From the sequence record MG748548: a DNA stretch of 64,000 bases; one strand, 5' to 3'. Below, piece after piece: positions 30,979 to 53,579 of this stretch. The notes below the pieces were generated by a model. It saw only the letters and a list, made by a program, of their open reading frames with translations, was not told where the DNA came from and did no database searches. Every line of letters begins with the position of its first letter. Position 1 is the first letter of the stretch. Position numbers and translations under genes: made by a program. Source of the DNA: Escherichia phage EP335.

Positions 30979-31635
30979 TTAACTCTCCAGAGTTTTCCTT
31001 AGAGCTGACCAAGAAATTGGGTAGAGTTTAGCCATCTCTTCATCTAATGACTGAGCAAACAGTCGAACTTCATACTGAGCATGGGATGATAGTCGTTGAC
31101 GACACAATTCAAACCAGCCATACAAACTACCAGTCCATACCCACTCAGTAATCATCCCCTGAGGAAGAACAAAGCGAGCTTGCTCTGGTGCAACAAATTC
31201 AATTAATTTGTCATAGGCTGCCAGTGAAGCCTCATACGCATTATTGATTAGCATTAATGCTTCGGCTCGTTCTCCGTTGACAAGCTGTGTCCCTGAACCT
31301 GCATGGAGGTCCGAAGGTCTCGCAAAAATCTCTTTAGGGATGAAGACTTCAACTGCTCCATCTTTATACCGCCGGGACATTTCGTTCCACGAGAATCCAA
31401 CCTGATGTTTTTGTAGTTGACGAGCTATTGCAATTGGAGCTTTACATCGAAAAGATACTTGAGGGTGTCTGAACGGAGTACAGTGTTTCTCTCTGGCAAG
31501 AAAGTTGATTAATCGAGTATCACGATCATTCAAATCACCCTCTCGCACAACACCGAAAGAAACTCTTGCAGCATTAACAACTGTTTTATCACTACCCATA
31601 GCTTCAATCAATGTTGCCTTCAATTGTTCATTCAT
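30979..31635 (-). CDS. thyX: ThyX-like protein (flavin-dependent thymidylate synthase family; RHR motif replaced by KHQ)
   Basis: FRHPQVSFRC and QLQKHQVGFSWNEMSRRY align with ThyX FEHVSF and QLVRHRxxSxxxxSxRY blocks. Confidence 0.65.
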   Translation of the reverse strand: MNEQLKATLIEAMGSDKTVVNAARVSFGVVREGDLNDRDTRLINFLAREKHCTPFRHPQVSFRCKAPIAIARQLQKHQVGFSWNEMSRRYKDGAVEVFIPKEIFARPSDLHAGSGTQLVNGERAEALMLINNAYEASLAAYDKLIEFVAPEQARFVLPQGMITEWVWTGSLYGWFELCRQRLSSHAQYEVRLFAQSLDEEMAKLYPISWSALRKTLES

Positions 31636-32110
31636 ACTTCAACTTCTCCTTGTTATAAGCAATCTCTGCTTCCTCTGGAGTGTGGAAAGTTCCCAAATGT
31701 TTAGTCTTTCCGCCAACTCCGATGATAGCTCTGAATTTTGTACCACTCGCCGTCTCTCTGATATAGACACCCATTGGGAGCTTTCCAGCTTTTCCGGCTC
31801 TGTTATATTGTTTCCTGTTATGACAGTTTGTAGATGGGTCAACATCTCTTAGGTTTTTAAGAGAGTCATCCAGTTTAATCTGGTTGATATGATCAATCTC
31901 AAACTCAGGCATCTTTCCATAAGAGAAAAACCAAGCTAAACGACAAGCTCTGTAAGATTTTCCTTCGTAATAAATATACCTGTAACCTAGTGTAGAGATA
32001 CACCCAGCAATATTCCCAGCCACCCGTCTACCTTTGGTATTCTTCCACCGAAAGATTCCAGTTTCAGGGTCATAAGACAGGTCTTCTTTTATCTTGTCAG
32101 TTAATATCAA
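31628..32110 (-). CDS. HNH homing endonuclease with AP2-type DNA-binding domain
   Basis: HNH core EIDHINQIKLDDSLKNLR plus AP2-like GVYIRETASGTKFRAIIGVGGKTKHLGTFHTPEEAEIAYN. Confidence 0.75.
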   Translation of the reverse strand: MILTDKIKEDLSYDPETGIFRWKNTKGRRVAGNIAGCISTLGYRYIYYEGKSYRACRLAWFFSYGKMPEFEIDHINQIKLDDSLKNLRDVDPSTNCHNRKQYNRAGKAGKLPMGVYIRETASGTKFRAIIGVGGKTKHLGTFHTPEEAEIAYNKEKLKYE

Positions 32111-33754: not shown

Positions 33755-33961
33755 CTAGTAGAAAACTGCTTTGGATATAAAAGAGCCAGTATTAGGGTCC
33801 TCATGCCATCGATGCATAGTGACTTTTGAGATAACCTTGCAAGCTTTCAAGTTTTTCTTGGTGAGACGAGCTTCTTCTCTGGTGTTGAATAACTTGATGG
33901 TATCTTTACCCACACGCTCTTCTACTCTCCACACTATTCGTATAGCCCACATCTTTTTCAT
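33755..33961 (-). CDS. Small protein, member 1 of a tandem paralog triplet
   Basis: MKKMWAIRIVWRVEE..., similar in length and pattern to the next two genes. Confidence 0.45.
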   Translation of the reverse strand: MKKMWAIRIVWRVEERVGKDTIKLFNTREEARLTKKNLKACKVISKVTMHRWHEDPNTGSFISKAVFY

Positions 33962-34176
33962 TAGTAATGTACCTTTCCGCTGATATAAATACGGCCTGAG
34001 GTATACTCATAGCCCTTGAGGATTTTGACAGAGGAAACACTATTCATCCCACTGAGAGATTTCTTAAGATTACGTGAACCCTCTCGTGTTTTCTGATAGG
34101 TCATGGTTGTATTACCATTATCCCACTCTATCTTAACTATCCAAATTCTTTTCATAAGACCTGCTCTCTTTACCAT
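33961..34176 (-). CDS. Small protein, member 2 of the tandem paralog triplet
   Basis: MVKRAGLMKRIWIVKIEWDNG...; stop/start coupled to neighbours. Confidence 0.45.
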   Translation of the reverse strand: MVKRAGLMKRIWIVKIEWDNGNTTMTYQKTREGSRNLKKSLSGMNSVSSVKILKGYEYTSGRIYISGKVHY

Positions 34177-34373
34177 TAGTAGTACACCTTGCTATTGGCG
34201 AAAAAAGCACCTTCGCTATTCACAATAGCTTTTCCTAATGTAACCTTGTTAAGTCTAAAAGTAGACTTGTATTGATTTTTGACCCTACGTGCGTGATCTC
34301 GAGTCTTAACAAAATCTACAGCTACCAAGTCTCCAGTCATGTTATCATGTACACGAACAATCCACTTTTTCAT
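34176..34373 (-). CDS. Small protein, member 3 of the tandem paralog triplet
   Basis: MKKWIVRVHDNMTGDLVAVDF...; ends in YY like member 1. Confidence 0.45.
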   Translation of the reverse strand: MKKWIVRVHDNMTGDLVAVDFVKTRDHARRVKNQYKSTFRLNKVTLGKAIVNSEGAFFANSKVYY

Positions 34374-34907
34374 TTACACACCCTTAGAAGCAACAACACC
34401 TTCGCTACCATTGTAGCGACCTTTAACTGCATAGGAATGCTCACCAGCATGTGAATGCTCAAACATCACCATCTGACCGACACGCATACCAGCACGAACC
34501 CGTAAGCTGTGGTGCTTGGTTACGTTATGGAACTCAAATGTCAGCTTGCTATTGTTAAACCCAGCGTCTGCCCAACCAGCGTGCAAGTGGTTCAAGCCAC
34601 AACGAGCCATTGAAGATCGTAGAACAAACAAGCTGGAGATGTTATCTGGGAGGTTGAACTCTTCCATTGAGTGAGCCAAGAAGAATTGTCCCGGAGTGAT
34701 GATAATGCCATCTTCAGGGATTTTTACTTCTTTCCACTTGAGGTTTTCTTTCGCATCAATGTCAACAATCCCATCAGCCTGTTCTTCAATAAGGATAGTA
34801 TCACCAACACGGATATCCACACTAGCAGCGTTAACATACTTATGCTCCGCATCCAGAAAACCGTTGTCGATAACGTCGTGTAATTCCATGCTTCCTAATA
34901 AACTCAT
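34374..34907 (-). CDS. dcd: dCTP deaminase (dUTPase-fold)
   Basis: SVDIRVGD, PGQFFLAHSMEEFNLPDN, RSSMARCGL and AGWADAGF align with E. coli Dcd TVDVRLG, PGELALAVTLESVTLPAD, RSSLARLGL, PGWSG. Confidence 0.8.
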   Translation of the reverse strand: MSLLGSMELHDVIDNGFLDAEHKYVNAASVDIRVGDTILIEEQADGIVDIDAKENLKWKEVKIPEDGIIITPGQFFLAHSMEEFNLPDNISSLFVLRSSMARCGLNHLHAGWADAGFNNSKLTFEFHNVTKHHSLRVRAGMRVGQMVMFEHSHAGEHSYAVKGRYNGSEGVVASKGV

Positions 34908-34921
34908 TCTTATTCCTTATG

Positions 34922-36202
34922 TTAATCTGCGATACTGTCGCTTTCGTCCATCCAGACTGGACTGTTAACCTGTCCTAGACGACGAGCTGATGTTTCGTTA
35001 ATAGAGTTAACCCCTGCTGTGCGAGGGTTTGTGTACCACGGTCGAGCTATGGTGCCCTCTCGAATCACTTGGTTCGTTTCGACATGCCATCTGTTTGATA
35101 CCGTGTTGGCTCCGAAGTTACCACCCGCCCCACCACTAACAGGTACAGCTTGAGCTGGTTGGTTTACTCGGTTAGTTCCTGCCCCAAAGGCTGCTGCAAA
35201 TTCAGACACACGTGCATCAAATGAAGAACGAACACGCTGAGTAGGTGATATATCATTTCGTGTATCTACTGCACGAGGCATAGCCCAAGTATCATCTGTT
35301 GAGATATCAGGGGTAGGCTCTTGCTCTAGAGGTTGAAGATTAGCTGTCCATTGACTATTCAGTATACGATAGAAATCTGCACCATAACCACTTCGGATAA
35401 CATCCTCTCTGACACCAAAGAAGCGACTGATATCCCCACCGATTCGGGCTAGTTTGTCATTGTATGCAGGTATGATTATTCCACCCTCTGTCACTAAATC
35501 AGAGACACGACTTGTTGTAAGTGGTGAAGTGATCCAACAATAATAATCAGTAATGTGACCATCGTATCCGAAGAATGCAATCTCTGCATCAGGCCATTTC
35601 TTGTGGACATATGCCACTTCACGGTTAGAACAAACAGGGATTGCACCTGTTTCAGTCATTGCATAGAAGCCGTCAGAAGAGAACCAAAGTGAATCTAGTG
35701 CTAAGAATCCACGACACACGCTCGGGAAAGTAGCAGCCAGCGCCCCAAGTGAGGTAGGTTCATTGAACATTAACTGAATCTTTGCACCCTGATAATTAAT
35801 CTCTAGGATATCTACAAAATTCAAAGAAGACCCAGGGGCATATTGATTATTACTTCGTCCAATATCCTGCTCAATGAGAAGAGATCTTGTTTCAACACCA
35901 TGAGCCTCTGCCCACTCTTTGAAATCTTCAAGGAACAAGCGAGCCTTAGCTCGCCACATCGACCGATCAATTACAGACTGTCTCGGCAATCCACCCTCTG
36001 TAGTGATGAGAAAGATATCAATGTCGTGAGGTTCACGCGTCTGAAAGATTGCATCCCTAACAGCACCACCTGCAATGATAGGGTACACACCATCAGGGAT
36101 TAAACGGTTTGCAATCAACTCGTTAATTAACGTAAGACCAGACACAAGCTGCGGACTATCATCAATCCGTCGACGAATTAGTGCATTAGGGATATTATAC
36201 AT
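34922..36202 (-). CDS. Pol-beta superfamily nucleotidyltransferase (CCA-adding-enzyme-like head domain) with long Gly/Asn-rich C-terminal region
   Basis: IIAGGAVRDAIFQTREPHDIDIFLI matches the GG-x-R-D ... D-x-D nucleotidyltransferase motif of class II CCA-adding / poly(A) polymerase enzymes. Confidence 0.55.
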   Translation of the reverse strand: MYNIPNALIRRRIDDSPQLVSGLTLINELIANRLIPDGVYPIIAGGAVRDAIFQTREPHDIDIFLITTEGGLPRQSVIDRSMWRAKARLFLEDFKEWAEAHGVETRSLLIEQDIGRSNNQYAPGSSLNFVDILEINYQGAKIQLMFNEPTSLGALAATFPSVCRGFLALDSLWFSSDGFYAMTETGAIPVCSNREVAYVHKKWPDAEIAFFGYDGHITDYYCWITSPLTTSRVSDLVTEGGIIIPAYNDKLARIGGDISRFFGVREDVIRSGYGADFYRILNSQWTANLQPLEQEPTPDISTDDTWAMPRAVDTRNDISPTQRVRSSFDARVSEFAAAFGAGTNRVNQPAQAVPVSGGAGGNFGANTVSNRWHVETNQVIREGTIARPWYTNPRTAGVNSINETSARRLGQVNSPVWMDESDSIAD

Positions 36203-36751
36203 TTACATTTTCCAATATAAAGATGGGGGGTCATTTGGGTCAAAGTTTGCAATATGACAAAGATATTTATAAACCTTAACCGTTAAGTTTACGTCCTGTT
36301 CACAATAAGTAAACATGTCCTCTGTAAAGGCATCCCATGCTTCTTCCTGTTCACCGTAATCGCCCTTAAGCTCTTCTAAGAACTCACCCCATTGCTTTAA
36401 GCCATGACCTCTTGGGCCATGTCTAGGGTCGCCTTTCGGATACTCAGGACTGTCACCAATACGGTCAGGTTTAAGATACCGACTCAGACATAAAGTGTCT
36501 AGGACGTTGAATTTGTATTTGATTAATTTCGGATATACTTTCTTCAGAGCTGGAAGGTCGAAGTCAATAATATTATGACCTACAACAATATCAGCCTCTG
36601 TAAGTTTCTTGATACCCTCTTCAATCTGGTGAGGACGAAATCCCCACCGTTCACCAGTTGCTATATCGAAGATAAAGATACACCATACGTTTGTGATATT
36701 GTCGTACAGTGCATCACTCTCAATATCAAATGCGTAGACTTTCTTTACCAC
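36203..36751 (-). CDS. DNA polymerase family A, 3'-5' exonuclease domain (T7 gp5 N-terminal-like), separate gene
   Basis: Exo I AFDIESD, Exo [13 protein letters not shown], Exo [12 protein letters not shown]; [11 protein letters not shown] and [19 protein letters not shown] resemble T7 gp5 N-terminal blocks; stop after ~182 aa. Confidence 0.85.
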
Positions 36752-38535
36752 GGGCTTTTCTCTCCATCTTGAGCAAGAAGTGATGCTGCATCCTCTCCAT
36801 TTGTCAGCGAGAATGGATTTTCTTCATCAATTTCATGATCTTCACGCTCAAGCAACCGTCCCGTCTCTCCTACATACTTCGTATAGCACACCCCTGTTTG
36901 TCCATAGTTACGCTCTTTGAGGAGTCGTATAATGGATAGGTTCTTAGCCAGACCATCTGCTTGTTTGTCACGTTCAAAACCGATGATACATTGACACCAA
37001 CGCATAAGAGAACGAGAACCAGTAAACTGTACCTCTCGAACCTGACCACCTTCTTCATGAGGTGCACCACCTGCCGGAGCATTAAGATGAGATAGCACGA
37101 ATGCTGTGAAGTTTAATTCTTGACACATACCAGCAAGCTCTGAAGCAATCTTACTGATTTCAGTGTTAATCTCTGAAGGTGTTAAATGGGATACCAGAGC
37201 GGTAATGTTATCAAGGATGATAAACTTACACTGGTTTTCAACAACCCAGAAACGGATACACTGTTTAATGTCGGCCCATTCATTCTGACCAAAGTTATCA
37301 TAGAGGAAGAATTTATCTGCATATCGAAGAGCTTCGTTACGCAATGTATCTTCATCATACTCAACATCAGGTCTGTGGAAAGGAATAGATGCTGACTTAC
37401 CTGCAATATTCTTAACGGACATTCCGACCTTCTCTTCCAAGAAGAATCCACCACCATTAAAACCATGCTCAAGACAAAGCCAAGCAACCAGTTCATGTGC
37501 AATCAATGTTTTACCAGAGCCTACACCTCCACCAATTGCTACCATCTCTCCCCAACGAATACCGTAGGTCATCTCATTAAGAGTCTTCCACGGATATGGG
37601 ATACCCCACTCTGCTTTCTTCAGAGCATCATCTAAGCAATCAAAAACAGTTACAGCACCAGCTGGGGATTCCCGCTTCGCTGAATATTTAAGAATGTTAA
37701 ACAACTCCTGACCACGACCAGAGAGGAGCATATCATTCGCATCTTTAAGCTCTTTCTCAACACCGTTGTACTGGAAAGAACCTTTAGGAATACGAGCAAA
37801 CTTCACATGGGGGAACAGAGCACGCCCTTTGGTAAGAGCAATCTCACCAGCATCATCGTTGTCCATACAGAGAACAACCTCTTCAAAACCATTCAAGAAC
37901 TCACGGTTGCGAGATAAAACGGAAGAGATTGACCCTGCACCGAAGGGTAAAGAGACGCACGCTGGTTTAATATTTGTTGCATTTGTAAAAGCTGTAAGAA
38001 CATGGAAACCAGACATGCAAGACAAAGGGTCTTCAAAGATGAAGAGCTTCTTATTGTACACATCTCCACGTTTAGCCTGTGCCATACCAAACAAATCAGC
38101 TTCTTTCACACTACCGATGTAATAAAACTTTTTACTATCAAGTAGTTTAACCTCATAACCAACAATGTTTCCATCACGTTCACGAGGGAAGAAGTAACTG
38201 TCTGGTGTCTGACCATCAGTTTGACTGAGACCGATACGACATTCAAAACGCTCTGATACAGCTTTAGGGATTAATCGACGAGTGAGTTCTCCTTGAGGTA
38301 ACTCCAAGCAATCATCCAAGACTTCTCGAAGTTCTTCAGGGGACAGCTCTTTCTTTTCGTTTGGTGTAGGTGTCGTGCCTTTCTCAAAGACTTCGTAATT
38401 ACCACACCGGTTACAACTACCCCACTCTTCACCGGATTCCTCATTACGGAAGAGAATCATGTGATTGTGGGTTTTATCACGACCATGAGAGATGCACTCT
38501 TTACAGCCTGTATCTCCCAAAATGATCTTTGACAT
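36745..38535 (-). CDS. Primase-helicase (T7 gp4-like)
   Basis: N-terminal zinc-binding Cys cluster, [15 protein letters not shown], DnaB-family Walker [10 protein letters not shown]. Confidence 0.9.
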
Positions 38536-38572: not shown

Positions 38573-38782
38573 TTACTTATAAAAACTTCGAATCATGTCC
38601 CAGATTTCTTCCTGCTGGACCCTAAAGAAAGCTAAACGTGTCGATGTACGTTCAATAAATTCTTCACTATGCTTTTCTCTATCTAGCATACTGACAAGCT
38701 TTTCATATTTATTGATCTTCCATCGCATTTTTAAATAGTCTGATTCCAGTGTCCTTAACCTCTGACACTCAATCAAACCCAT
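38573..38782 (-). CDS. Hypothetical protein
   Basis: 69-aa ORF. Confidence 0.4.
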   Translation of the reverse strand: MGLIECQRLRTLESDYLKMRWKINKYEKLVSMLDREKHSEEFIERTSTRLAFFRVQQEEIWDMIRSFYK

Positions 38783-39201
38783 TAGTTATCCTCTGACAGA
38801 TAAAGAGACCAGTCACCAGATTCAACCAGCTCATCCTGCTCTTCATCGATGTGATAAATCCAAGCAGTGATAGTTTCACCACTATCCATTACAACTTCGA
38901 TAGGAGTACGCTTATAGAAAGTGTGTGGGTTGTCATTACCGCGATGCCCTTCCAGCATATCATAAGCACCCTCAACACCATCCATATCCGTCTTAAATAC
39001 TTCAACACGAACAGGTTTACCGTTGCTGTTGTGTTCCAGAGAAACACTTGGGAAGTATGAACCACCGTAGCGGTACAAGTTGTAGTTTTCTTTAGTGAAG
39101 CCTTCACCAATTGATTCAGCACCTGCACGAGCATTCACTCGGAAGTTGGCCTGACCAGTGCGAAGAGAACCGTAAGTTGCTACATAAATTACTTCTGACA
39201 T
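38782..39201 (-). CDS. Gamma-glutamyl cyclotransferase-like (AIG2/GGCT family) protein
   Basis: N-terminal VATYGSLRTGQ (YGSL motif) and downstream AYDMLEG with conserved Glu. Confidence 0.6.
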   Translation of the reverse strand: MSEVIYVATYGSLRTGQANFRVNARAGAESIGEGFTKENYNLYRYGGSYFPSVSLEHNSNGKPVRVEVFKTDMDGVEGAYDMLEGHRGNDNPHTFYKRTPIEVVMDSGETITAWIYHIDEEQDELVESGDWSLYLSEDN

Positions 39202-39202
39202 T

Positions 39203-39412
39203 TTAAATACCTTTCCAATCGTTCATGATTTTTTCAATATAAGCACACTGTTGATCAGTGGCACCTGTTACAAATATTTCACACCCTAACTGTTCACAGA
39301 AAGGATTGAGTATTAAGATTTGAGATTTACCATATGAGTGATGCTCTCTGTAAATAACACAACCAGCATCCCAAACTGAATCTAATGCCTTACTTAACCT
39401 TTTGTGTTTCAT
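39203..39412 (-). CDS. Hypothetical protein
   Basis: 69-aa ORF. Confidence 0.4.
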   Translation of the reverse strand: MKHKRLSKALDSVWDAGCVIYREHHSYGKSQILILNPFCEQLGCEIFVTGATDQQCAYIEKIMNDWKGI

Positions 39413-39468
39413 ACAGTCTCCAGTTAATCCGAACTAGCCTCCTCTTTCGAAGAAGCTAGAGCAGATTG

Positions 39469-39651
39469 CTATGCTGTGAAGTTTTTGATTACACCGCAAA
39501 TAACATCTGTTTCAAACGTACCCACCAGAACATCGTCTCGGTAGAAATTAATCGCTTTACCATCTCGGTTAAAGTGATCTGCTTCAATGAGCATAGATTG
39601 TACCTGACCATCTGGGGTGGAGGTTCGAAAGATGACGTTATACTGACTCAT
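39469..39651 (-). CDS. Hypothetical protein
   Basis: 60-aa ORF. Confidence 0.35.
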   Translation of the reverse strand: MSQYNVIFRTSTPDGQVQSMLIEADHFNRDGKAINFYRDDVLVGTFETDVICGVIKNFTA

Positions 39652-39890
39652 AAAGAAGTTACTCCCTTATCTTCTTGAGCGATAGAGATGATACGACTCA
39701 CACACTGCATTGAGTACTCATCACCACGCTTTAGGAACGTTACGATAGCAGAGAATTGATTACCAATCATCCGCTCATTTGTAATACCGAACTCTTTGCA
39801 GAGTTCTTTCAGTTTGCTACGAGAACCAATAATCAGAGGTTCTTTTTCTTCAGTCATTCCACGACTAATCAAATCTTCAATAGACAACAT
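39648..39890 (-). CDS. Hypothetical protein
   Basis: 80-aa ORF; start coupled to neighbours. Confidence 0.4.
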   Translation of the reverse strand: MLSIEDLISRGMTEEKEPLIIGSRSKLKELCKEFGITNERMIGNQFSAIVTFLKRGDEYSMQCVSRIISIAQEDKGVTSL

Positions 39891-39913
39891 AATTCCATTC
39901 CTTGGGGGTTTAA

Positions 39914-41131
39914 TTAAAAGTTTACTGCTTCACCATCAACGGTAGTTACTGATGCAAGACGACGAACACGGCCAATCTGTTCACGACTGATTGGAGTATT
40001 CCAACCAGAGCGATAGAAGTTGCGACCACAGAAGAACACAACAACATTAGAAGCAATCCGTCCGTAGTTACGATCAGGGTGATTGATGTTAGCAAGATAA
40101 TAACCACGGGTCAAGTTTGCATTTTCGTTGATATGCCGAGCATTTGGTGCAGTTGTTTCAGCTTGCATCATTTCAGGAACATCTTCTACGATAGGCTCAA
40201 CCGTAGGTTCATCACCAGCTAAAGCAAAGTTCTCATCAGCAGCCTCTTCTGCATCATCTTCCAGCTCCACAGTTTCCTGAATAACTGGCAGAGGGTATGC
40301 TACACGATACTCAGGGTTTTGACCACGGAGAGATTCAACATACTGCAAGAAGTTGTGCTGGTAAGTTTCCAGAGTTGTACCAGTCAGGCCCGGAGCGGTA
40401 TTAACTTCTAACACCCACGCTTCCTCACCTTTACTGATAAGATCAACAGCACCAAAGTTAAGACCGAGTGCTTGTACTGCTTTGTGCGCTTGAATTAGAA
40501 CCTGATCAGGTGGTGAATCATTAAAAGAGTTGGAATAAACCCAACCAGTGTGGTGATTACGAACATCTTCACGATAGTCAGGGTTATCACGATACCCATT
40601 ACGACGAATCTTCTTCTGGACGTAAGTAATAACACCTTCAAAAACATGCACACGCCATTCACGACGTGGACCAGTGATTGCTTTTGTATACAGAGGAGCC
40701 TCAGCAACACCCTCACGAGGAAGACGAACAGTGATGCCTTCACCAGAGTGACCATTAAGTACACCACGTTCGTAAACAATACTGTTTTGGTTCCAGTTAA
40801 GTGCTTCATCTCGGTTAGTGGTATACTCAACAGTCTTGACTTCCGCAAGACGCATGGCATTGAAAGCTGCAACCTTGTTAGCCGCACGATTCAATGCTGC
40901 TACGTTGTTCAGAACCGTTGCACCTTCGAAGAAGGATTCTTGATAACGACGGTTTCCATAGTTGATAATCACGTCACCAGAACGAGCACGGAATCGGCTG
41001 GTTCCATCAGACAGAAGAGCCATTGCGTTGGCATTGATTCGGTTGTCACGGAGATGTTGATTCAAGCTGGATACCAGAGCATTAACAGAATCAGAAGGGC
41101 CATAAGGGAGAACACGGATACGAGTAGTCAT
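39914..41131 (-). CDS. ATP-grasp domain ligase
   Basis: WVLEVNTAPGL matches the ATP-grasp E-x-N-x-x-PG loop; 405 aa. Confidence 0.7.
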   Translation of the reverse strand: MTTRIRVLPYGPSDSVNALVSSLNQHLRDNRINANAMALLSDGTSRFRARSGDVIINYGNRRYQESFFEGATVLNNVAALNRAANKVAAFNAMRLAEVKTVEYTTNRDEALNWNQNSIVYERGVLNGHSGEGITVRLPREGVAEAPLYTKAITGPRREWRVHVFEGVITYVQKKIRRNGYRDNPDYREDVRNHHTGWVYSNSFNDSPPDQVLIQAHKAVQALGLNFGAVDLISKGEEAWVLEVNTAPGLTGTTLETYQHNFLQYVESLRGQNPEYRVAYPLPVIQETVELEDDAEEAADENFALAGDEPTVEPIVEDVPEMMQAETTAPNARHINENANLTRGYYLANINHPDRNYGRIASNVVVFFCGRNFYRSGWNTPISREQIGRVRRLASVTTVDGEAVNF

Positions 41132-41133
41132 TT

Positions 41134-41367
41134 TTAGATACCTTTAAGTTTAAGAATTTCGTTGCGAGTACGTTGGATACGTTCTTCAAGAGTATGATAA
41201 TCAAAGATGCACATCTCTTCTGCTTCATCAGAAGGTGCATCCATTAAACCCATAGCAATCGGATACACCTTTCGCTGTTCCGTTGTCATGTCCTGTAGCC
41301 GGAGTCGTTGATACTCCAGCAGGGTAATTTTCGGCTTGTTAGTTTCCTTGCTTGACATGAGGCTCAA
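41134..41367 (-). CDS. Hypothetical protein
   Basis: 77-aa ORF. Confidence 0.4.
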   Translation of the reverse strand: MSLMSSKETNKPKITLLEYQRLRLQDMTTEQRKVYPIAMGLMDAPSDEAEEMCIFDYHTLEERIQRTRNEILKLKGI

Positions 41368-41572
41368 CCTTGATACCTTTCAGTTTCACATAGTCAGCCA
41401 GCACGTTGTTAATAACTGTTGGGAAAGGAATCTCAACAGGTGCATTAACTAACCCACCAATACCCTCTTGCATCCACTTCTGGATTGCACGAAGGTTATC
41501 ACATCCTGTGCTTGTCATTGGAATACGGCGAGTGGTTACAACGTTATCCAACATCATCTTACGAATTTCCAT
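41339..41572 (-). CDS. Hypothetical protein
   Basis: 77-aa ORF. Confidence 0.4.
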   Translation of the reverse strand: MEIRKMMLDNVVTTRRIPMTSTGCDNLRAIQKWMQEGIGGLVNAPVEIPFPTVINNVLADYVKLKGIKVEPHVKQGN

Positions 41573-41582
41573 AATACACCTC

Positions 41583-43601
41583 TTAATTATGACCTTTACA
41601 GTGCACTGAATCGCACACCACTTGATTGGTATTGTTTAGTGTGCAGAGTTCTGCATCACGCCACGGAATCTTTTTAAAACAGACTGCACAAAACCCAAGA
41701 GTAGACCAGAGGGCTTTTGTGAAGGTTGCTGATCGGTTTCCATCGAAGGACGCAACTGTTCTGGTAATTGAGACTTTTGACTCACGAAAGGTTTCCGCTG
41801 CTGGAGCGGGTTCCTCCTTTGGGGTAGTCACTGCAATAGCATAAACACCACCCCAACGCTTCTCAATGTAAGCACCGAACACATCTTCCAGAGTGATTTC
41901 ACTCTTACGTTTGGTTGAGGATTCCATGACAATCATGTTGTCCAGAATCTTTTGATCAACACGAAGAGCTACTTCAGGACGTCGAGCACTTGTTGTATCA
42001 ACATACTTGGTCCAAACATAACCCTCTTTCAGAGTGACTTGAGTTGCTTGCTTCTTTGCTTTATTAGCACAGATTTTACAAACATCGTCACCACGAAGTT
42101 TACTGAACTCTTCATCAAATTCAAAGTCAGACTTCACTTCGCCGCACACTGAACAAACGCCGATAGGAATCTCATCCTCTTCAACGTCTTCCACTTGCTT
42201 CTGGATAGAATCAAAACAAGCTTTATGCCAATATGCTTGGTATGCGAAGATCGCACTTGGTGCTTCTTTCCAGTCAATGTGCTTATCACATCCACCACAA
42301 TCACCGTGGGAATGGGCTTCCCAGAACTTACGAGTGATAGTCACCCCATTCTTGCTGACAAAACTATCCTCTGCATCAAAAGGGATATCATCATCGAAAT
42401 CAGCTGTAGTGCTTTCCGGCTCCTTTTTCGACAAGTCAAAGAAGTGACCAGAGATCAACACCAAACGAATCATGCTATTAACTTCAGAGATACAGCCAAC
42501 CGTACCACGGTAAACCATATGCTTGTTCTTAAGAGCAGCTTCGTAATCAGTTTGCAGGATGTTATGAACATCACCCTCAATATACTCTTGAGCTTTGTCA
42601 TCATAAATATAACCAACCATCTTACCGCGATCGGTATCTTTATAACAAACAAACTCGTGAGGAATAATATCAACCTGCATATCACGACGGACATCAACAC
42701 CTTTGTCAGAGGCGATCTTGTTTTGTTTCAAGATTGCTTCACGACGACGTACATCACCTGCGGTTACGCCGGGCTTTCTTTGCTCGTCGCTGTTCCCGTT
42801 TACGTAACTTTTTGTCACGCTTGAGTGATTGTTGCTGTAGCTGTTCGAGTAATAACTTCCCCAACGCGTTGCTACCGTAAAAACCGGGAGTTCATGTACG
42901 ACCTCCTCTACCAAAGTCATCTTGTTGTCAGAAACATCAAAGATGTACTCTGTACCGACTTTACACTCAAAGTGCTCATCAATTCGGTTCTTGTGGCTCT
43001 TAGAACGCTGAAGAATCCACATTAGCATCGCTTCTTCTGAAGCACCAAACCATGAAGTTCCCAGACGGGCCAGATGGAAAGGACGTTCATCGTTACGAAT
43101 GATGTGAAGACGGTTATCACTTGCATCATGCCAGATTAGAGTGAATGCACCATCCAACTTCTGAATAGTCTCTGCTGCACCAATCTTGTTAATAGAGTGG
43201 CAGATGTTCTCACTATCAACCTCAAAAGCCTTACTGTCAGGCAGAAGGTCTTGATCAACTAAGGTTCCGTTATGAACCAGAGTAATATTTCCGTGAGAGA
43301 ATGGGTGAGCGTTACGTGAGTTAATAGCGCCTTTCGTAGCATGTCGGCTGTGACCAACAATCCATGAAGGAGGCACTGTGTAATTAGTAAGGCCAGTTGT
43401 CAGCTCGGTGTACTCTTTCTGTAACATGAAAGCATAGGAAGGCAGTGCTTCTTTGTAAGAGAACACAGATCTTTCGCTTTTACGCTGACCGAAAATACCA
43501 GTTGAGTGTTGACCACGAAATACACCAGCATAAAGAAGCTGGTTGTAAATATCTAAGTCATAACTTGAGAGGCTTCCACCTGCTAATACGATACCACAAA
43601 T
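41583..43601 (-). CDS. Class II (Ntn-hydrolase) glutamine amidotransferase domain protein with Cys-rich C-terminal extension; probable non-canonical ATT start
   Basis: Frame stays open 45 codons above the track start; first codons after the in-frame TAG are AAA ATT TGT GGT ATC (K-I-CGIV..., classic Ntn Cys1 context); AGGTGG sits 8 nt upstream of ATT; GHSRHATKG...NAHPF...LVHNG follows. Confidence 0.65.
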   Translation of the reverse strand: MCGIVLAGGSLSSYDLDIYNQLLYAGVFRGQHSTGIFGQRKSERSVFSYKEALPSYAFMLQKEYTELTTGLTNYTVPPSWIVGHSRHATKGAINSRNAHPFSHGNITLVHNGTLVDQDLLPDSKAFEVDSENICHSINKIGAAETIQKLDGAFTLIWHDASDNRLHIIRNDERPFHLARLGTSWFGASEEAMLMWILQRSKSHKNRIDEHFECKVGTEYIFDVSDNKMTLVEEVVHELPVFTVATRWGSYYSNSYSNNHSSVTKSYVNGNSDEQRKPGVTAGDVRRREAILKQNKIASDKGVDVRRDMQVDIIPHEFVCYKDTDRGKMVGYIYDDKAQEYIEGDVHNILQTDYEAALKNKHMVYRGTVGCISEVNSMIRLVLISGHFFDLSKKEPESTTADFDDDIPFDAEDSFVSKNGVTITRKFWEAHSHGDCGGCDKHIDWKEAPSAIFAYQAYWHKACFDSIQKQVEDVEEDEIPIGVCSVCGEVKSDFEFDEEFSKLRGDDVCKICANKAKKQATQVTLKEGYVWTKYVDTTSARRPEVALRVDQKILDNMIVMESSTKRKSEITLEDVFGAYIEKRWGGVYAIAVTTPKEEPAPAAETFRESKVSITRTVASFDGNRSATFTKALWSTLGFCAVCFKKIPWRDAELCTLNNTNQVVCDSVHCKGHN

Positions 43602-43675
43602 TTTCTAATCCACCTGAAGGGTAAACCCTTTCATCTAATTAACCTTTAGTTGTGCCCCTTTCGAGGCACCCATTG

Positions 43676-44776
43676 TTACAGCAGTCGTTCTAACTGAATT
43701 TCCAAGTGATCTGGAATATATTCAGTGACGTTGTTATCGGAGACGCCAGATTCACGCATCATGTTGAGCATGCTACGAATCTGTCCTTCTGTTGCTTCAC
43801 GAGTTTCACTAATCTCTGTTTCATACAGAGCCATGATCTCGTTATGAACATCTTGAGCATTACCACGGACATATCCGAGGAAGCCATAGAAGTCAGACAT
43901 ATCACGAAGGGATACAACTACCGACCCACTATTATCAAGAGTTTGTAAACGAATACGCCCAACCTGACGGACAGAACGATTACGACAGAACAGGATATCA
44001 CGAGCCAGACGATAACCACTATCAAGATCTTCGTGTCTTGGGGTGTAGTCTAGAGGTAGGTGAGGGAGCATAGGGTCAAAACGAACCCTGTTAAGCATCT
44101 CAACAAACTCTTCATTGTCCATCTCTGCATTTTCAACTGCTAATTTCTTAAGAACCAAGAAGCGGTTTACCAGATTTAACAGCTGACCTTTCTTCCACTT
44201 AGGCTCTGAGATACGGAACTCAACAGAACCGAACTGAGCCAGAGGAAGTAGGTTAAGTGATGTGTACTTATCCCAACGATCAACAATGTGTCGGAAGAAG
44301 TTCTCACCTTCGTAGTTAAATGCTTCAGAAGCATTCATTACTTGAGCCTGCACTACCGCAAAAGCAGGACAGAAATTACTACGGTAACGGTGATAACCAG
44401 AGCACTTAAACATCAATGCTTCATAGAAAGTCCACCCAAGGATAACTTTCTTAACGATATTGCTATCAGCATCTCGCATATCCATATGAACGTGAGTGGA
44501 ACAGCGCCAAGTCCCTTCTGCTTCGGACTCCATCACTGCCTCACTCAGATTGTTGATAGCGTCAAACAGTTCTACACCATTGTAAGGGCGAGAACAGACC
44601 ATTTCACATCCGTTGCGAAGCGAGCCATCCTCTGTACATTCCCACATATCTGCTTCGATATGATCGTCACCTTCAAGCTCCAGCTCAATACCAATACCGC
44701 ATTGGAATGCGATACTCGGATGTGCTTCACTCAGACGATTACTACGGTATCCAAAAGCTTGCGCTACAGTTGTCAT
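43676..44776 (-). CDS. Amidoligase (GCS2/YbdK-like carboxylate-amine ligase family)
   Basis: N-terminal GIGIELELEG and later STHVHMD resemble GCS2-type amidoligase blocks. Confidence 0.55.
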   Translation of the reverse strand: MTTVAQAFGYRSNRLSEAHPSIAFQCGIGIELELEGDDHIEADMWECTEDGSLRNGCEMVCSRPYNGVELFDAINNLSEAVMESEAEGTWRCSTHVHMDMRDADSNIVKKVILGWTFYEALMFKCSGYHRYRSNFCPAFAVVQAQVMNASEAFNYEGENFFRHIVDRWDKYTSLNLLPLAQFGSVEFRISEPKWKKGQLLNLVNRFLVLKKLAVENAEMDNEEFVEMLNRVRFDPMLPHLPLDYTPRHEDLDSGYRLARDILFCRNRSVRQVGRIRLQTLDNSGSVVVSLRDMSDFYGFLGYVRGNAQDVHNEIMALYETEISETREATEGQIRSMLNMMRESGVSDNNVTEYIPDHLEIQLERLL

Positions 44777-45387
44777 AACGACTCCACTAACTCCACAGTG
44801 TATTGGTTAAAATCACTTTGAATATGCTTGAACACATCAAGCAGTTGTACGGTCTGACGACCACGGCTGTCATGTCCAGCACCGAGAAGCACGCGACCAA
44901 CGTGTGCTCCTTTATAATAAACAAGACCATCGGAAGGGTTGATGAAGATAAAGCGAGTCAACAAACCTTCAAAAGATGGATTAAACAGGTTATAAACCAT
45001 CTCACCGGAGATGTTACGACCAAGAGAAGTTACGCCACGGAGTTTGTTACCCATCAACCCCTTAGCTCGCTGACGAACTGGATTGATATGGGTCCAACTT
45101 ACCATGTTACGACCATGTTGAAGATAACCAACATCAGGGGATTCCAGAATCAGGTTAGGGTTGAACACTCCAATCTGAACTGTTGTACGGTTAAACCCTG
45201 AGTCTGTTTTAACCCAACGCTCTGCTTCGAACATCAAAGCCATCTCTGCTTCGTGAGAGAAGTCATCACGAGAGAACTCGCCTTGTTGGAATACGTTCAT
45301 AACAAACAATGGGATGTTTAAGTTCCCACGTCTTTCAGCAATCCATGTCCCACAATAGTAATGAGAGAAGTCAGTTACTAAGCTCAC
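44773..45387 (-). CDS. Hypothetical protein inside the amidoligase cluster
   Basis: 204-aa ORF coupled to both neighbours. Confidence 0.45.
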   Translation of the reverse strand: MSLVTDFSHYYCGTWIAERRGNLNIPLFVMNVFQQGEFSRDDFSHEAEMALMFEAERWVKTDSGFNRTTVQIGVFNPNLILESPDVGYLQHGRNMVSWTHINPVRQRAKGLMGNKLRGVTSLGRNISGEMVYNLFNPSFEGLLTRFIFINPSDGLVYYKGAHVGRVLLGAGHDSRGRQTVQLLDVFKHIQSDFNQYTVELVESL

Positions 45388-45396
45388 GATAACCCC

Positions 45397-46284
45397 TTAC
45401 GCTACCTGTAAACGTTTCAAGAACACATCTGCTTCACGAACATCGTTGGTGTTGATGATCTGGTGCAGCTTTTCAATCGGAAGGCGAGAGTGGAGGCCCA
45501 TCAAGAACTCCATGTCGCTGTTTTGTACAACCTTGTCAACTTGATCATACACAAATTGACGATCTTCTTTCTTGCCAATCCAGAAGTTTGACAGAGAGCG
45601 ATACTCAATGCCATAAGGTTTGTAACGGATTGCGGATGCTTTACCGTATAGCTCTTTACGACGAGCATCACCGTCCATCAGAACAGCAGGCAATGACAGG
45701 AAGTAATCACACAGAACGCCCAGCATCATCTGAACCTTCTTATTCACATCCAGAGAGCCAGTGACACCGATATGCACATGACCGCCTGCTGTACGCAAGC
45801 CCTTGTTCTCTGAAGTTGGGGAAGCATTCTTTTGACCAGTGAATGCGTTGAAGTCTGGAGTACAACCAAACACGAAAGCGGACGGATGGAATGATTCCAA
45901 TTCTTCTTTAGAGAAGATATGAGAACTTACACCCAGAGCCGCTTCCATGTCCTGTTTCTTCAGAACTTCGTTGGTAAGATCAATACCACGCTGAACGTTG
46001 TCATTAAACGCTTCAAAACCTTGTTGTGGGTTGATATCAAATTCAGCAAGAACGTTGTCTTCTTGGAGACGAACATCCTTAGCCAGATCGATTTTATTTT
46101 CTTTAGAACAGCCCAGCTTTCCAGCAACAGAGGTGATGATGCCAGAAGAAGTACGAACAAACATTTCAGGGTCAGTGCCGATTAAAAAGATGCGCTTAGT
46201 CATTGTAGTATTCCACCAATTCTTTAAAGAGGGATGTGATTGTTTCTTTGTTGCTCTCTGTACTAGAGTCACAACGACTTTCAA
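45397..46284 (-). CDS. Second amidoligase-like protein (GCS2-like)
   Basis: IGTDPEMFV and GGHVHIGV in positions analogous to the first amidoligase. Confidence 0.5.
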   Translation of the reverse strand: MKVVVTLVQRATKKQSHPSLKNWWNTTMTKRIFLIGTDPEMFVRTSSGIITSVAGKLGCSKENKIDLAKDVRLQEDNVLAEFDINPQQGFEAFNDNVQRGIDLTNEVLKKQDMEAALGVSSHIFSKEELESFHPSAFVFGCTPDFNAFTGQKNASPTSENKGLRTAGGHVHIGVTGSLDVNKKVQMMLGVLCDYFLSLPAVLMDGDARRKELYGKASAIRYKPYGIEYRSLSNFWIGKKEDRQFVYDQVDKVVQNSDMEFLMGLHSRLPIEKLHQIINTNDVREADVFLKRLQVA

Positions 46285-47125
46285 TACGTTCTAAGAAACC
46301 ATTTACACTGATGTTAGAAATCTTTTCATCAAGAGATGAACGTTTCCAACCAGTGCTCATAGACCAAACTCTCAAAAAGGTACTCATTGAAGAGTACATC
46401 TCTGCGTTTTGGTTTCGACGACGAGCAATACGACGAAGGGCTGCACGGTCATGGTTTCGGATATACCCTGATGTGTTATCACCTTCTCCAACTTTGTTTT
46501 GCAACCAAACATCGGTTGAAAACTCATCTGTATTGCAAATGATCGGAAGAAATGCAAATGCTGGTAAGTCGTGCGGTAAGTAGATAGATGTTGATTCATC
46601 AGTGGAATCATTAACTCTATCAAAGTTAAGCTCCCCAAAGAAATCCTTACTTACCCCAGCAAGAGCTAGAGCTAATCCAACACGACGACGGAATAGCCAT
46701 TCTTCTCTATCATCAACTCCCTCTGAAAGAAAATCCATAGATTCATACTCGCAATCGAGATAACTACGGAAAGTCATTAGTCCTGTAAAAACTTTATCTG
46801 CTGCGTGTTCACGAAGATCAACCTCTACACTATTAGCAGAAGTGATTGTGAACATATCTTTGTACATAGAACAGGAGTTTAGTACATCAGCAGTATCCAA
46901 CAAATGAGACTCAATCTCATCCATGTTGCAGTGAGGCCAGTAGTTAATCTTACCCATGTGTGCTGTGAAGTTATCTAAGCTGGTTCGATTACTCAGGCCA
47001 TTAATATCACGAGTGCTGAAGTTGTGCATAGAGTTGTGGATACCGAAACAGACTCGGCTCGTAAAACTCTGCTCACCCACCATATCACTAACTTCTACAG
47101 GAGCTAATGTTGTGGAAATTGCCAT
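46196..47125 (-). CDS. Hypothetical protein
   Basis: 309-aa ORF; 5' end overlaps the preceding gene, start uncertain. Confidence 0.45.
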   Translation of the reverse strand: MAISTTLAPVEVSDMVGEQSFTSRVCFGIHNSMHNFSTRDINGLSNRTSLDNFTAHMGKINYWPHCNMDEIESHLLDTADVLNSCSMYKDMFTITSANSVEVDLREHAADKVFTGLMTFRSYLDCEYESMDFLSEGVDDREEWLFRRRVGLALALAGVSKDFFGELNFDRVNDSTDESTSIYLPHDLPAFAFLPIICNTDEFSTDVWLQNKVGEGDNTSGYIRNHDRAALRRIARRRNQNAEMYSSMSTFLRVWSMSTGWKRSSLDEKISNISVNGFLERIESRCDSSTESNKETITSLFKELVEYYND

Positions 47126-47137
47126 TGTCTTTAACCT

Positions 47138-48331
47138 TTAATTTCCTAAGAAAAGTTTCGTGAGAATTGAATCCCACTCCGTACTAGGCAGTACATCAAA
47201 ACTGCTATTATTTGACAGATTCGACTGTTGAAAGTGGCGAATCATTGTGTAAGTATTAACACGGTCATTGCCAAATCGAGTATACAACAACTCATTTCGA
47301 GTCTTGTCTGATAGGGAAATAGCTTTGGCAAAAGCTACAATCAGCATAGGCTCTTTGAGGGCACGATCTTGAAGGGCTTCCGGTTGAAGAATAGGTAAGA
47401 ACATTGAGTTGTTTACATACAGCTCATGCTCTTCGTGTCCGGGAACGTCATACCAAACACTCGAATAGTCTTCATCACGGAAATGTCCTTCACCAGCCAT
47501 ATATGACGGTTGACGCCACGCAGTCTGGCGAGGTTCTGCCATATTAGCTCCGATGCCCACTGTGTACAGTGTTACAGGGAACAGGCAGTTATCGTATTCA
47601 TTACCAGTAAAGGCAACTCGTACTTCGCCAAACAGATTCTCTTTTGCGTTAATCAATCGAGAATAGGCAAGAGCTTGTAACGGAGACCAATCGTCCATAA
47701 AGAGCTTATCAAGGAAAGTCCACACATTTGCTTGCTCATCTTCTTGATAAAACAGACGATTAACCATAAGATAGAACAGGCAACGATCAGCAGGCACTGG
47801 TTCAGATACATCTTCTGTTACCACACCCATAAAACCTTTTTCATGCCAAACAAGACATGAAGGACGATCTTTATCCATGAAAGCTTCAAGTGCTTCCATA
47901 ACTGACTTGACAGTTACATCAGGTCGTTCACGATATTCAGCCCAAAGCTCAACTGCGTTCTTAGGCTTTTCATCCCCTACATCAGCGTGATAGAAAGCAT
48001 ATTGGAAGGAGATGATGTTGTTGCTCCCATCCTTTCCACGCATAGGGATATGGGTTCCAGAGTTCCAGATAATACGAATATCTTCCATTGACATTAAACT
48101 GCTTAGGAGTTCATCGCTGCCAGAGCTTTGCATCAAGCTATAGCTGCTATCCCAAACATGGACATACTGCGTCCAGCCTTCATTGGCTTCGTAGGTAATG
48201 GGGTCGTAATAATCACTATCTTCGTCACAATCATCACCACCGTGGTAGTTGCTGTGCTGAAGAAAGCCATAGCAAGGAGGCCAGACTGTTACTACATTGT
48301 CCTGCTTATCCTGCAATGTTACTGGAAACAT
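47138..48331 (-). CDS. Hypothetical protein
   Basis: 397-aa ORF. Confidence 0.5.
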   Translation of the reverse strand: MFPVTLQDKQDNVVTVWPPCYGFLQHSNYHGGDDCDEDSDYYDPITYEANEGWTQYVHVWDSSYSLMQSSGSDELLSSLMSMEDIRIIWNSGTHIPMRGKDGSNNIISFQYAFYHADVGDEKPKNAVELWAEYRERPDVTVKSVMEALEAFMDKDRPSCLVWHEKGFMGVVTEDVSEPVPADRCLFYLMVNRLFYQEDEQANVWTFLDKLFMDDWSPLQALAYSRLINAKENLFGEVRVAFTGNEYDNCLFPVTLYTVGIGANMAEPRQTAWRQPSYMAGEGHFRDEDYSSVWYDVPGHEEHELYVNNSMFLPILQPEALQDRALKEPMLIVAFAKAISLSDKTRNELLYTRFGNDRVNTYTMIRHFQQSNLSNNSSFDVLPSTEWDSILTKLFLGN

Positions 48332-53503: not shown

Positions 53504-53579
53504 TGGTGCGCCCTACAGGATTCGAACCTGTAACCAATAGCTTAGAAGGCTACTGCTCTATCCGTTGAGCTAAGAGCGC
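53504..53579 (-). tRNA. tRNA-Arg (anticodon UCU), CCA encoded
   Basis: Reverse complement folds as a canonical cloverleaf: acceptor GCGCTCT/AGGGCGC, D-arm GCTC-AACGGATA-GAGC, anticodon arm GTAGC-CTTCTAA-GCTAT, T-arm ACAGG-TTCGAAT-CCTGT, then A-CCA. Confidence 0.9.

Follow-up and report, generated by a model that had tools for sequence, protein, structure and literature searches.

A core gene of phiEco32-like phages encodes a nucleotidyltransferase (NTase) that, by sequence comparison, branches on its own within a phage clade of class II-like NTases consisting of a head only, to which Gad2 also belongs, and that is the fastest-diverging large gene of an otherwise conserved replication module. 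We analysed the copy in Escherichia phage EP335 (record MG748548), which lies in a stretch of 64,000 nt referred to here as the window. That the protein is an early/middle-expressed, catalytically competent, phage-specific NTase is well supported. The predicted architecture is likewise well supported: aa 1-280 comprise a class II head of the CCA/poly(A)-polymerase type, a single neck helix and a small helical extension, and after them comes a disordered, rapidly changing tail of ~145 residues. A host-directed or counter-defence role is a candidate function. Five points are new: a connection to the Gad2 clade, the loss of motifs B and D as a trait specific to the family, the correct limits of the domains, an island of divergence the size of one gene, and a tail that recombines independently.

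The NTase gene is a core gene next to replication genes

The open reading frame and its placement between the genes for dCTP deaminase and the polymerase exonuclease, both given in the preliminary description, were borne out by the ORF list, in which the gene is a complete CDS on the minus strand with an ATG start and 426 codons plus stop (426 aa; Table 1). It belongs to a phiEco32-like coliphage of the Gordonclarkvirinae, whose nearest relative, KBNP1711 (genus Nieuwekanaalvirus), shares 96% nucleotide identity across the NTase region. In a profile search, the protein matched PHROG 12715 over residues 1-425 (E=6e-161). The gene is core and strictly syntenic in phiEco32-like phages: protein matching found it encoded in 96 of 98 related phage records, and the order primase/helicase, exonuclease, NTase, dCTP deaminase was kept in all three genera. 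More distant metagenomic relatives had the same gene order, the only insertion ever seen being a homing HNH gene downstream of the NTase.

Table 1. Coordinates of the NTase gene, its domains and motifs, and its neighbours in the window
Feature	Position	Strand	Remarks
NTase CDS	34922..36202	minus	orthologue of phiEco32 gp73 / KBNP1711 gp076 / PHROG 12715
Class II-like NTase head and first neck helix, aa 1-212	35567..36202	minus	most conserved part
Helical extension packing with the head, aa 213-282	35357..35566	minus	pLDDT 86-93 up to ~residue 270
Lineage-specific tail, aa 283-426	34925..35356	minus	pLDDT 22-39; dN/dS 0.37-0.79
Motif A first half, G45-G46-A-V-R49-D50	36053..36070	minus	G45, G46, R49, D50 family-invariant
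D60-I-D62-I-F64, two metal-binding aspartates	36011..36025	minus	D60, D62, F64 invariant
D131, candidate third carboxylate	35810..35812	minus	Asp or Glu in every family member
F159-P160-S-V-C163	35714..35728	minus	site of class II motif B (RRDxTIN) and Gad2 FDFTxC
P189...R194...Y198..K201-K202-W203 helix	35594..35638	minus	equivalent of class II motif D helix (EDPLRxLRxxRF) and Gad2 P..S..R..KY..KGY
dCTP deaminase	34374..34907	minus	93-94% identical to phiEco32; own Shine-Dalgarno (AAGGA)
3'-5' exonuclease subunit of split DNA polymerase	36203..36751	minus	81-86% identical to phiEco32, Bas93, IME267
Primase/helicase	36745-38535	minus	93-95% identical to phiEco32, Bas93, IME267
Context block, primase/helicase and exonuclease subunit	36203..38535	minus	81-95% identical to phiEco32
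TAA-ATG junction	36200..36205	minus	exonuclease-subunit stop abuts NTase start, no spacer

The TAA-ATG junction makes translational coupling of the NTase to the exonuclease subunit likely. The primase/helicase gene in turn overlaps the exonuclease gene, and the three genes are therefore probably translated as a unit. Pre-late expression has been described for the SU10 orthologue; the temporal class of phiEco32 gene 73 was not found in the accessible phiEco32 literature.

Several other features of the surrounding DNA were recorded. An HNH homing-endonuclease ORF (31628-32110, minus strand) abuts the ThyX gene; in phiEco32 the best match has an identity of only 29% and sits at a different locus, which makes a mobile insertion probable. 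One metagenomic locus (L007) carries another, different HNH gene, placed between NTase and dCTP deaminase. Upstream of the replication genes, an unusual peptide/metabolite-modifying module (38782-46000, minus strand) comprises a gamma-glutamyl cyclotransferase, a RimK-like ATP-grasp ligase (39914-41131), a glutamine amidotransferase and an amidoligase, as annotated in KBNP1711/phiEco32. The GC skew changes sign at ~18000 (positive before, negative after), which seems to coincide with the change from structural genes on the plus strand to early/replication genes on the minus strand.

The active site is conserved and class II motifs B and D are replaced

The GGAVRD...DIDIF signature pointed out in the preliminary description is present (IIAGGAVRD, aa 42-50; HDIDIF, aa 59-64), and its catalytic residues proved invariant family-wide; together with the PHROG match and the 96 phage records, this puts the signal well beyond what chance would give. 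In the family alignment (27-37 sequences, 21-35% identical to the window protein), G45, G46, R49, D50, D60, D62, F64, I132, Q143, P160, Y198 and K202 were invariant. D131 is the probable third catalytic carboxylate in this alignment; E134 was rejected for this role, being invariant in the coliphages only and D, N, S or Q in other members, whereas position 131 is always acidic. The protein thus has the features of the Pol-beta superfamily, namely the hG[GS] turn (G45-G46), the DxD motif (D60-x-D62) and the acidic residue 131, and its fold was confirmed by structure prediction. The preliminary description had made its assignment depend on this fold and on a catalytic aspartate triad, whose third position is probably residue 131, filled by Asp or Glu. 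Given the invariant catalytic residues and the low dN/dS of the head and of residues 213-290, the enzyme is very probably active.

Similarity to CCA-adding enzymes was largely confined to motif A. The class II pattern GGxVRD...DxD is present, and hmmsearch aligned it to the CCA enzymes 7otr/6ibp; the family profile matched CCA enzymes in the PDB over motif A only (E ~0.1). The Pfam PolyA_pol profile (PF01743) covered residues 43-65 only, with 13.5 bits against a gathering threshold of 23. Within the family, 16 of 27 members matched it at E<=0.1 (best E 2.5e-4), and the scores listed ranged from 13.5 to 19.2 bits, all <23. Aligning the family to E. coli Cca and PcnB gave an hhalign probability of 25% over 24 columns. 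At motif B, the family alignment has no RRD, and F-P-x-x-C with an invariant proline stands in its place; this substitution, marked by P160, is specific to the family and does away with the RRD residues for recognition of the ribose 2'-OH. At motif D (EDxxR), the helix is kept (P189, R194, Y198, K201/202), and the templating E, D and R are absent (A-I-P-V-C), in a mapping based on hhalign of the stand-alone head NTases described below against Cca and an alignment made partly by eye. No tRNA-binding body or tail domains were found in the predicted structure, in agreement with the earlier remark that the protein is unlike the usual CCA-enzyme body.

These observations bear on the role that the preliminary description had put first, repair of tRNA 3' ends, in which a minimal CCA- or A-adding enzyme would rebuild ends after cleavage by anticodon or acceptor nucleases of the host. 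The phage does carry the tRNA-Arg on which this idea drew (tRNA-Arg(UCU), 53504-53579, minus strand), but its 3' CCA is genomically encoded (...AGGGCGC-A-CCA) and the host possesses Cca. Moreover, RRD and EDxxR have been replaced by family-specific invariant residues, the body and tail domains are missing, PolyA_pol stayed below threshold in every member with a score listed, and the highest divergence of the module would not be expected in an enzyme acting on the invariant CCA end. We therefore disfavour tRNA repair and consider it improbable. The long-standing database label 'CCA-adding enzyme domain' implies the wrong function, a point that is corrected here even if the protein turns out to be an ordinary accessory enzyme.

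A folded domain of ~280 residues is followed by a probably disordered tail

AlphaFold2 (AF2) predicted a globular domain up to residue ~280 (pLDDT 85.5, pTM 0.84), with an ordinary amino acid composition. This model overturned an AF2 prediction from a shallow alignment (pLDDT 48), in which everything past residue 215 appeared disordered. The head has about 42% identity between genera and a pairwise dN/dS of 0.12-0.23. The helical extension carries two family-wide motifs, h-R-x-x-F-x-I/L-P (near 255-266) and N-[WYF]-[ST]-x-G-[LR] (near 283-289), and pairwise dN/dS for residues 213-290 was 0.07-0.28. The shortest family members stop just past this extension.

Residues ~283-426 are probably disordered, judging from the model. 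The preliminary description had called the remaining ~300 residues Gly/Asn/Thr-rich; this does not apply up to residue ~280 and is only partly true of the tail, whose composition is slightly skewed (A 10.9, T 8.8, S 8.8, R 8.8, N 8.0 and G 7.3%; G/S/T/N/A/P/Q together 56%). Among deposited phages, the tail is present only in KBNP1711 and Bas89 besides the window phage. A module common to other proteins was considered and rejected, as the tail occurs in the NTase gene alone, in these three phages. Looking at C-termini across the family (window aa 417-426; P0019-P0049), we observed that about two-thirds of tails, of any length, have an aromatic residue among their final few (for example ...SF, ...DF, ...WQW, ...WDW, ...SFEIDENN and ...VWMDESDSIAD). 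These could represent a short docking motif or be due to chance.

Comparison of the predicted structure, an approach that the preliminary description had named beside HHpred for classifying the family, identified the head as class II-like: class II enzymes ranked above CD-NTases and generic Pol-beta-fold matches, and the closest structures were RNA-end enzymes. No profile picked up elements specific to CD-NTases, the protein had no match in PADLOC, and neither Pfam NTP_transf_2 nor PADLOC gave a match for MNT, AbiEii or MenT families. Searches of NCBIfam, PADLOC and PDB sequences likewise returned nothing useful. A producer or consumer of signalling nucleotides, either CD-NTase-like or interfering with nucleotide-based immune signalling, is in our view extremely unlikely, with generic Pol-beta-fold matches ranking lower, no PADLOC match and no CD-NTase elements in the profile searches.

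The family is a sister branch of Gad2

A word-indexed homology search with the full protein returned only relatives of 72-94% identity, and further reach was obtained by seeding with orthologues from other genera and by exhaustive HMMER searches. Across 1.84 billion representative proteins, HMMER gave 46 matches at E<=1e-3, 28 of which were true family members; in all 28 the domain is N-terminal, and total length varied from 274 to 482 aa. The weaker matches were stand-alone head NTases of 184-290 aa that lie at the PolyA_pol threshold and fall into PHROG 1614. Two of these (P0058 and P0060) had strong precomputed matches to PF26128 ('Gad2'), the Pfam family of the experimentally verified SPbetaL7-type Gad2, and the gene of one of them (P0060) adjoins a family-A DNA polymerase. 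Among the precomputed annotations, no PF26128 match was on record for P0001-P0017, and family member P0024 had a weak one.

Profile-profile alignment connected these groups. The family aligned to the stand-alone heads with an hhalign probability of 99.4% (E 4e-21, 142 columns), a score inflated by the choice of the heads as family-profile matches; the score of Gad2 against the heads is independent and reached 99.5% (E 4e-23, 164 columns). The heads aligned to Cca/PcnB at 95.5% (E 1.5e-8, 150 columns). Directly compared, the family and Gad2 gave 81-89% across runs (E 1e-5 to 3e-6, 89-120 columns), for instance 88% at E 3e-6 over 101-120 columns, against 4% for a reversed control (E 0.011, 14 columns); Gad2 against Cca/PcnB gave 3% (E 0.014, 141 columns). 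By this network, together with the PF26128-positive neighbours, the family is therefore a separate branch within the head-only clade that contains Gad2.

Membership in Gad2 itself was rejected: motifs and PHROGs differ, and there is no similarity to the C-terminal half of Gad2. BLASTP of the window protein against Gad2 aligned a 25-residue stretch of motif A only. A resemblance noticed by eye between 'PVVSxxRxxKY' in Gad2 and 'PVVSSRExKY' in the window protein was discounted, hhalign having aligned this region in one of four runs.

A gene-sized island of divergence in a conserved backbone

Compared with phiEco32, Bas93 and IME267, the whole NTase was only 30-36% identical (42% in the head, aa 1-212; 21-30% from aa 213 to the end), against 93-94% for dCTP deaminase. 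Along the genome, DNA identity to phiEco32 dropped from 75-95% to 41-55% exactly at the NTase start and stop codons, and the sole local peak inside the gene (67%) lay over the catalytic motif. Among the 74 ORFs common with phiEco32 (median identity 77%), the NTase was the most divergent gene >200 aa, the tail fibre being less divergent at 56%. Its identity was ~33% whether the backbone was 94% or 84% identical, and allele classes tracked genera.

In closely related phages, identity was ~99% over the final 300 nt of the exonuclease gene but 78-95% over the NTase gene (dS 0.16-0.5). Synonymous divergence was thus high as well, which indicates that old NTase alleles have moved by recombination into near-identical backbones, rather than merely undergone faster amino acid change. 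Only three nucleotide differences separate the window from KBNP1711 in codons 1-290, against a dS of 0.16 in the tail; the tail has therefore been exchanged as a separate module. Pervasive positive selection is not apparent from these comparisons, pairwise dN/dS being <1 in all regions. Overall, the sequence pattern is typical of loci engaged with variable partners.

Other local differences were seen nearby. Over the initial 280 nt of the dCTP deaminase gene (34623-34907), identity to the window is 96-97% for KBNP1711 and the P0004 and P0017 contigs, and only 68% for Bas89 (L013) and the P0010 contig (L010); in some lineages a mosaic junction therefore lies right at the NTase 3' end. A second small divergence spot lies just downstream of the dCTP deaminase gene (34000-34200; 49-59% DNA identity to phiEco32), where three tandem small ORFs (33755-34373, minus strand; 68, 71 and 65 aa) are mutual paralogues with 29-33% identity and a common MKK-W...TR...Y-end pattern. 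The next most divergent large genes after the NTase are two hypothetical genes (46196-48331, minus strand; 309 and 397 aa; counterparts of phi32_87 and phi32_88), which are 45-48% identical to phiEco32 and adjoin the amidoligase/ATP-grasp/glutamine amidotransferase cluster.

The divergence also weighs on the strongest rival of a host-directed function, a DNA-directed role within the replication module, which we consider unlikely. Here, the enzyme would take part in a covalent DNA modification together with dCTP deaminase, or in untemplated tailing or capping of the 3' ends of the linear genome, hiding them from end-sensing nucleases, with the tail docking to the replisome. Tight coupling to the exonuclease gene and the core, syntenic position would fit a function in replication or nucleotide metabolism, and a DNA modification of the kind described was proposed in the BASEL paper, alongside the unexplained resistance to restriction systems for which phiEco32-like phages are noted. 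However, a conserved replisome (81-95%) or DNA fails to explain an identity of 30-36% and unrelated tails between genera, and the closest structures are RNA-end enzymes. The phage also encodes ThyX (30979-31635), which gives dCTP deaminase an ordinary role in dTTP supply; the idea of dU-containing DNA joining NTase and dCTP deaminase is weakened by this and unlikely. To our knowledge, no DNA hypermodification pathway includes a class II-type NTase. Were the DNA-directed role correct, the gene would represent an overlooked nucleic-acid-modifying step in the phiEco32-like replication module.

A tentative role against strain-variable host functions

A tentative explanation, which we regard as possible, is that the NTase counters a host function that varies between strains by adding an NMP to an acceptor from the host. 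In this scheme, the GG-RD/DxD/D131 site would bind an NTP and two metal ions, and the NMP would be transferred onto a hydroxyl group. The acceptor is probably not the tRNA CCA end and more likely a host component: either a protein, with a function in immunity or as a nuclease, or a nucleic-acid terminus sensed by such proteins. Transfer would neutralise a host function differing between E. coli strains, and the variable surface and the tail would supply target recognition. Recognition of this kind would explain why old, highly diverged alleles have been retained and shuffled between near-identical backbones.

Several points run contrary to this counter-defence reading. The family lacks the defining features of Gad2, both in its motifs and in the C-terminal half. 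Anti-defence genes are typically accessory, and the core position of the NTase fits replication or nucleotide metabolism at least equally well. dN/dS is <1 everywhere, and allele classes follow genera. In addition, 'works like Gad2' would, as an analogy, say little about the chemistry.

A takeover or shut-off function outside immunity, with the enzyme acting like MenT/AbiEii or AMPylating enzymes to nucleotidylate an RNA or protein of the host and so redirect its metabolism early in infection, is very improbable in our view. It would be in line with the pre-late expression of the SU10 orthologue, with the toxicity of related NTases expressed in bacteria, and with a conserved active site beneath a variable surface. 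Yet there is no profile similarity to the MenT, AbiEii or MNT families, housekeeping targets are conserved across E. coli and would not drive such divergence, and takeover in phiEco32-type phages has already been ascribed to gp36 and gp79.

A bolder version of the counter-defence role, which strikes us as decidedly unlikely, would make the NTase the determinant of the unusually broad resistance of Gordonclarkvirinae to DNA-targeting immunity: coupled to the replisome, it would nucleotidylate host nucleases or sensors, or the phage's own DNA ends, and the recombining disordered tail would be an interchangeable targeting module for strain-specific immune proteins. If true, this would be the first chemical mechanism for the Gad2 clade.

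Gad2-type NTases belong to the small number of counter-defence proteins of phages that seem to be enzymes. The family studied here is a sister branch of them, compact and deeply diverged, which essentially all phiEco32-like phages possess. With a conserved active site, a sharply bounded hyper-divergent body and a recombining tail, it offers a testable case for how a phage enzyme may be retargeted in an arms race. Genetically tractable members are available in phages growing on E. coli K-12 derivatives (Bas86-94), including the Bas89 orthologue, which is 93% identical to the window protein.

Comparison with known NTases

Class II tRNA nucleotidyltransferases and PAP I (PF01743; PDB 3aql, 1ou5, 3h37, 1miv, 4wby) have 350-470 folded residues, compared with ~280 in the window protein, which is also without an HD domain; the sequence match is confined to 22-24 residues. 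MenT, AbiEii, MntA and CD-NTases rank below class II enzymes structurally, and small NTase toxins and antitoxins sit in two-gene toxin-antitoxin or defence operons, unlike the window gene with its replication neighbours.

The nearest sequence neighbours outside the family are the stand-alone heads, which comprise PHROG 1614, the metagenomic proteins P0058 and P0060, a protein of Providencia phage PS3 (A0A411AWC7) and a Streptococcus pneumoniae protein (NP_344798.1, PDB 2la3). They resemble the family in their phrog_1614 matches (E 1e-6 to 1e-10), in the similar size of the folded part and in being phage-borne. They differ in length (184-290 aa, with no long tail), in keeping FDF at motif B and in reaching or nearly reaching the PolyA_pol threshold (up to 24.2 bits).

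The Gabija anti-defence protein 2, Gad2, was described as ORF159 of Bacillus phage SPbetaL7, with a homologue in a Brevibacillus prophage (Yirmiya et al., bioRxiv 10.1101/2023.05.01.538930). SPbetaL7 needs it to resist Gabija, and the SPbetaL7 copy is toxic on expression; a Gad2-annotated NTase of a Pseudomonas podophage, encoded beside a primase/helicase, is cytotoxic at high induction. Gad2 has AGGxxTS, FDFTxCMG and FLKHNSQR, whereas the window protein has GGAVRD, FPSVC and no FLKHNSQR; the C-terminal half of Gad2 is folded, and the window protein has its predicted disordered tail there, with no similarity. Gad2 proteins fall into PHROGs 18122/27100/16176/4400 and the window protein into PHROG 12715, and the window gene is core and syntenic, not part of an anti-defence island. 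Both, however, are phage-encoded proteins with an N-terminal class II-like head, (A)GG...(N/H)DxD(I)(Y/F), a Q-L-M strand, an F-x-x-x-C motif, a P...R...Y..K helix and lineage-specific C-terminal parts. Gad2-type genes of podophages also adjoin replication genes, and both groups align to the same small head NTases at hhalign probabilities of 99.4-99.5%.
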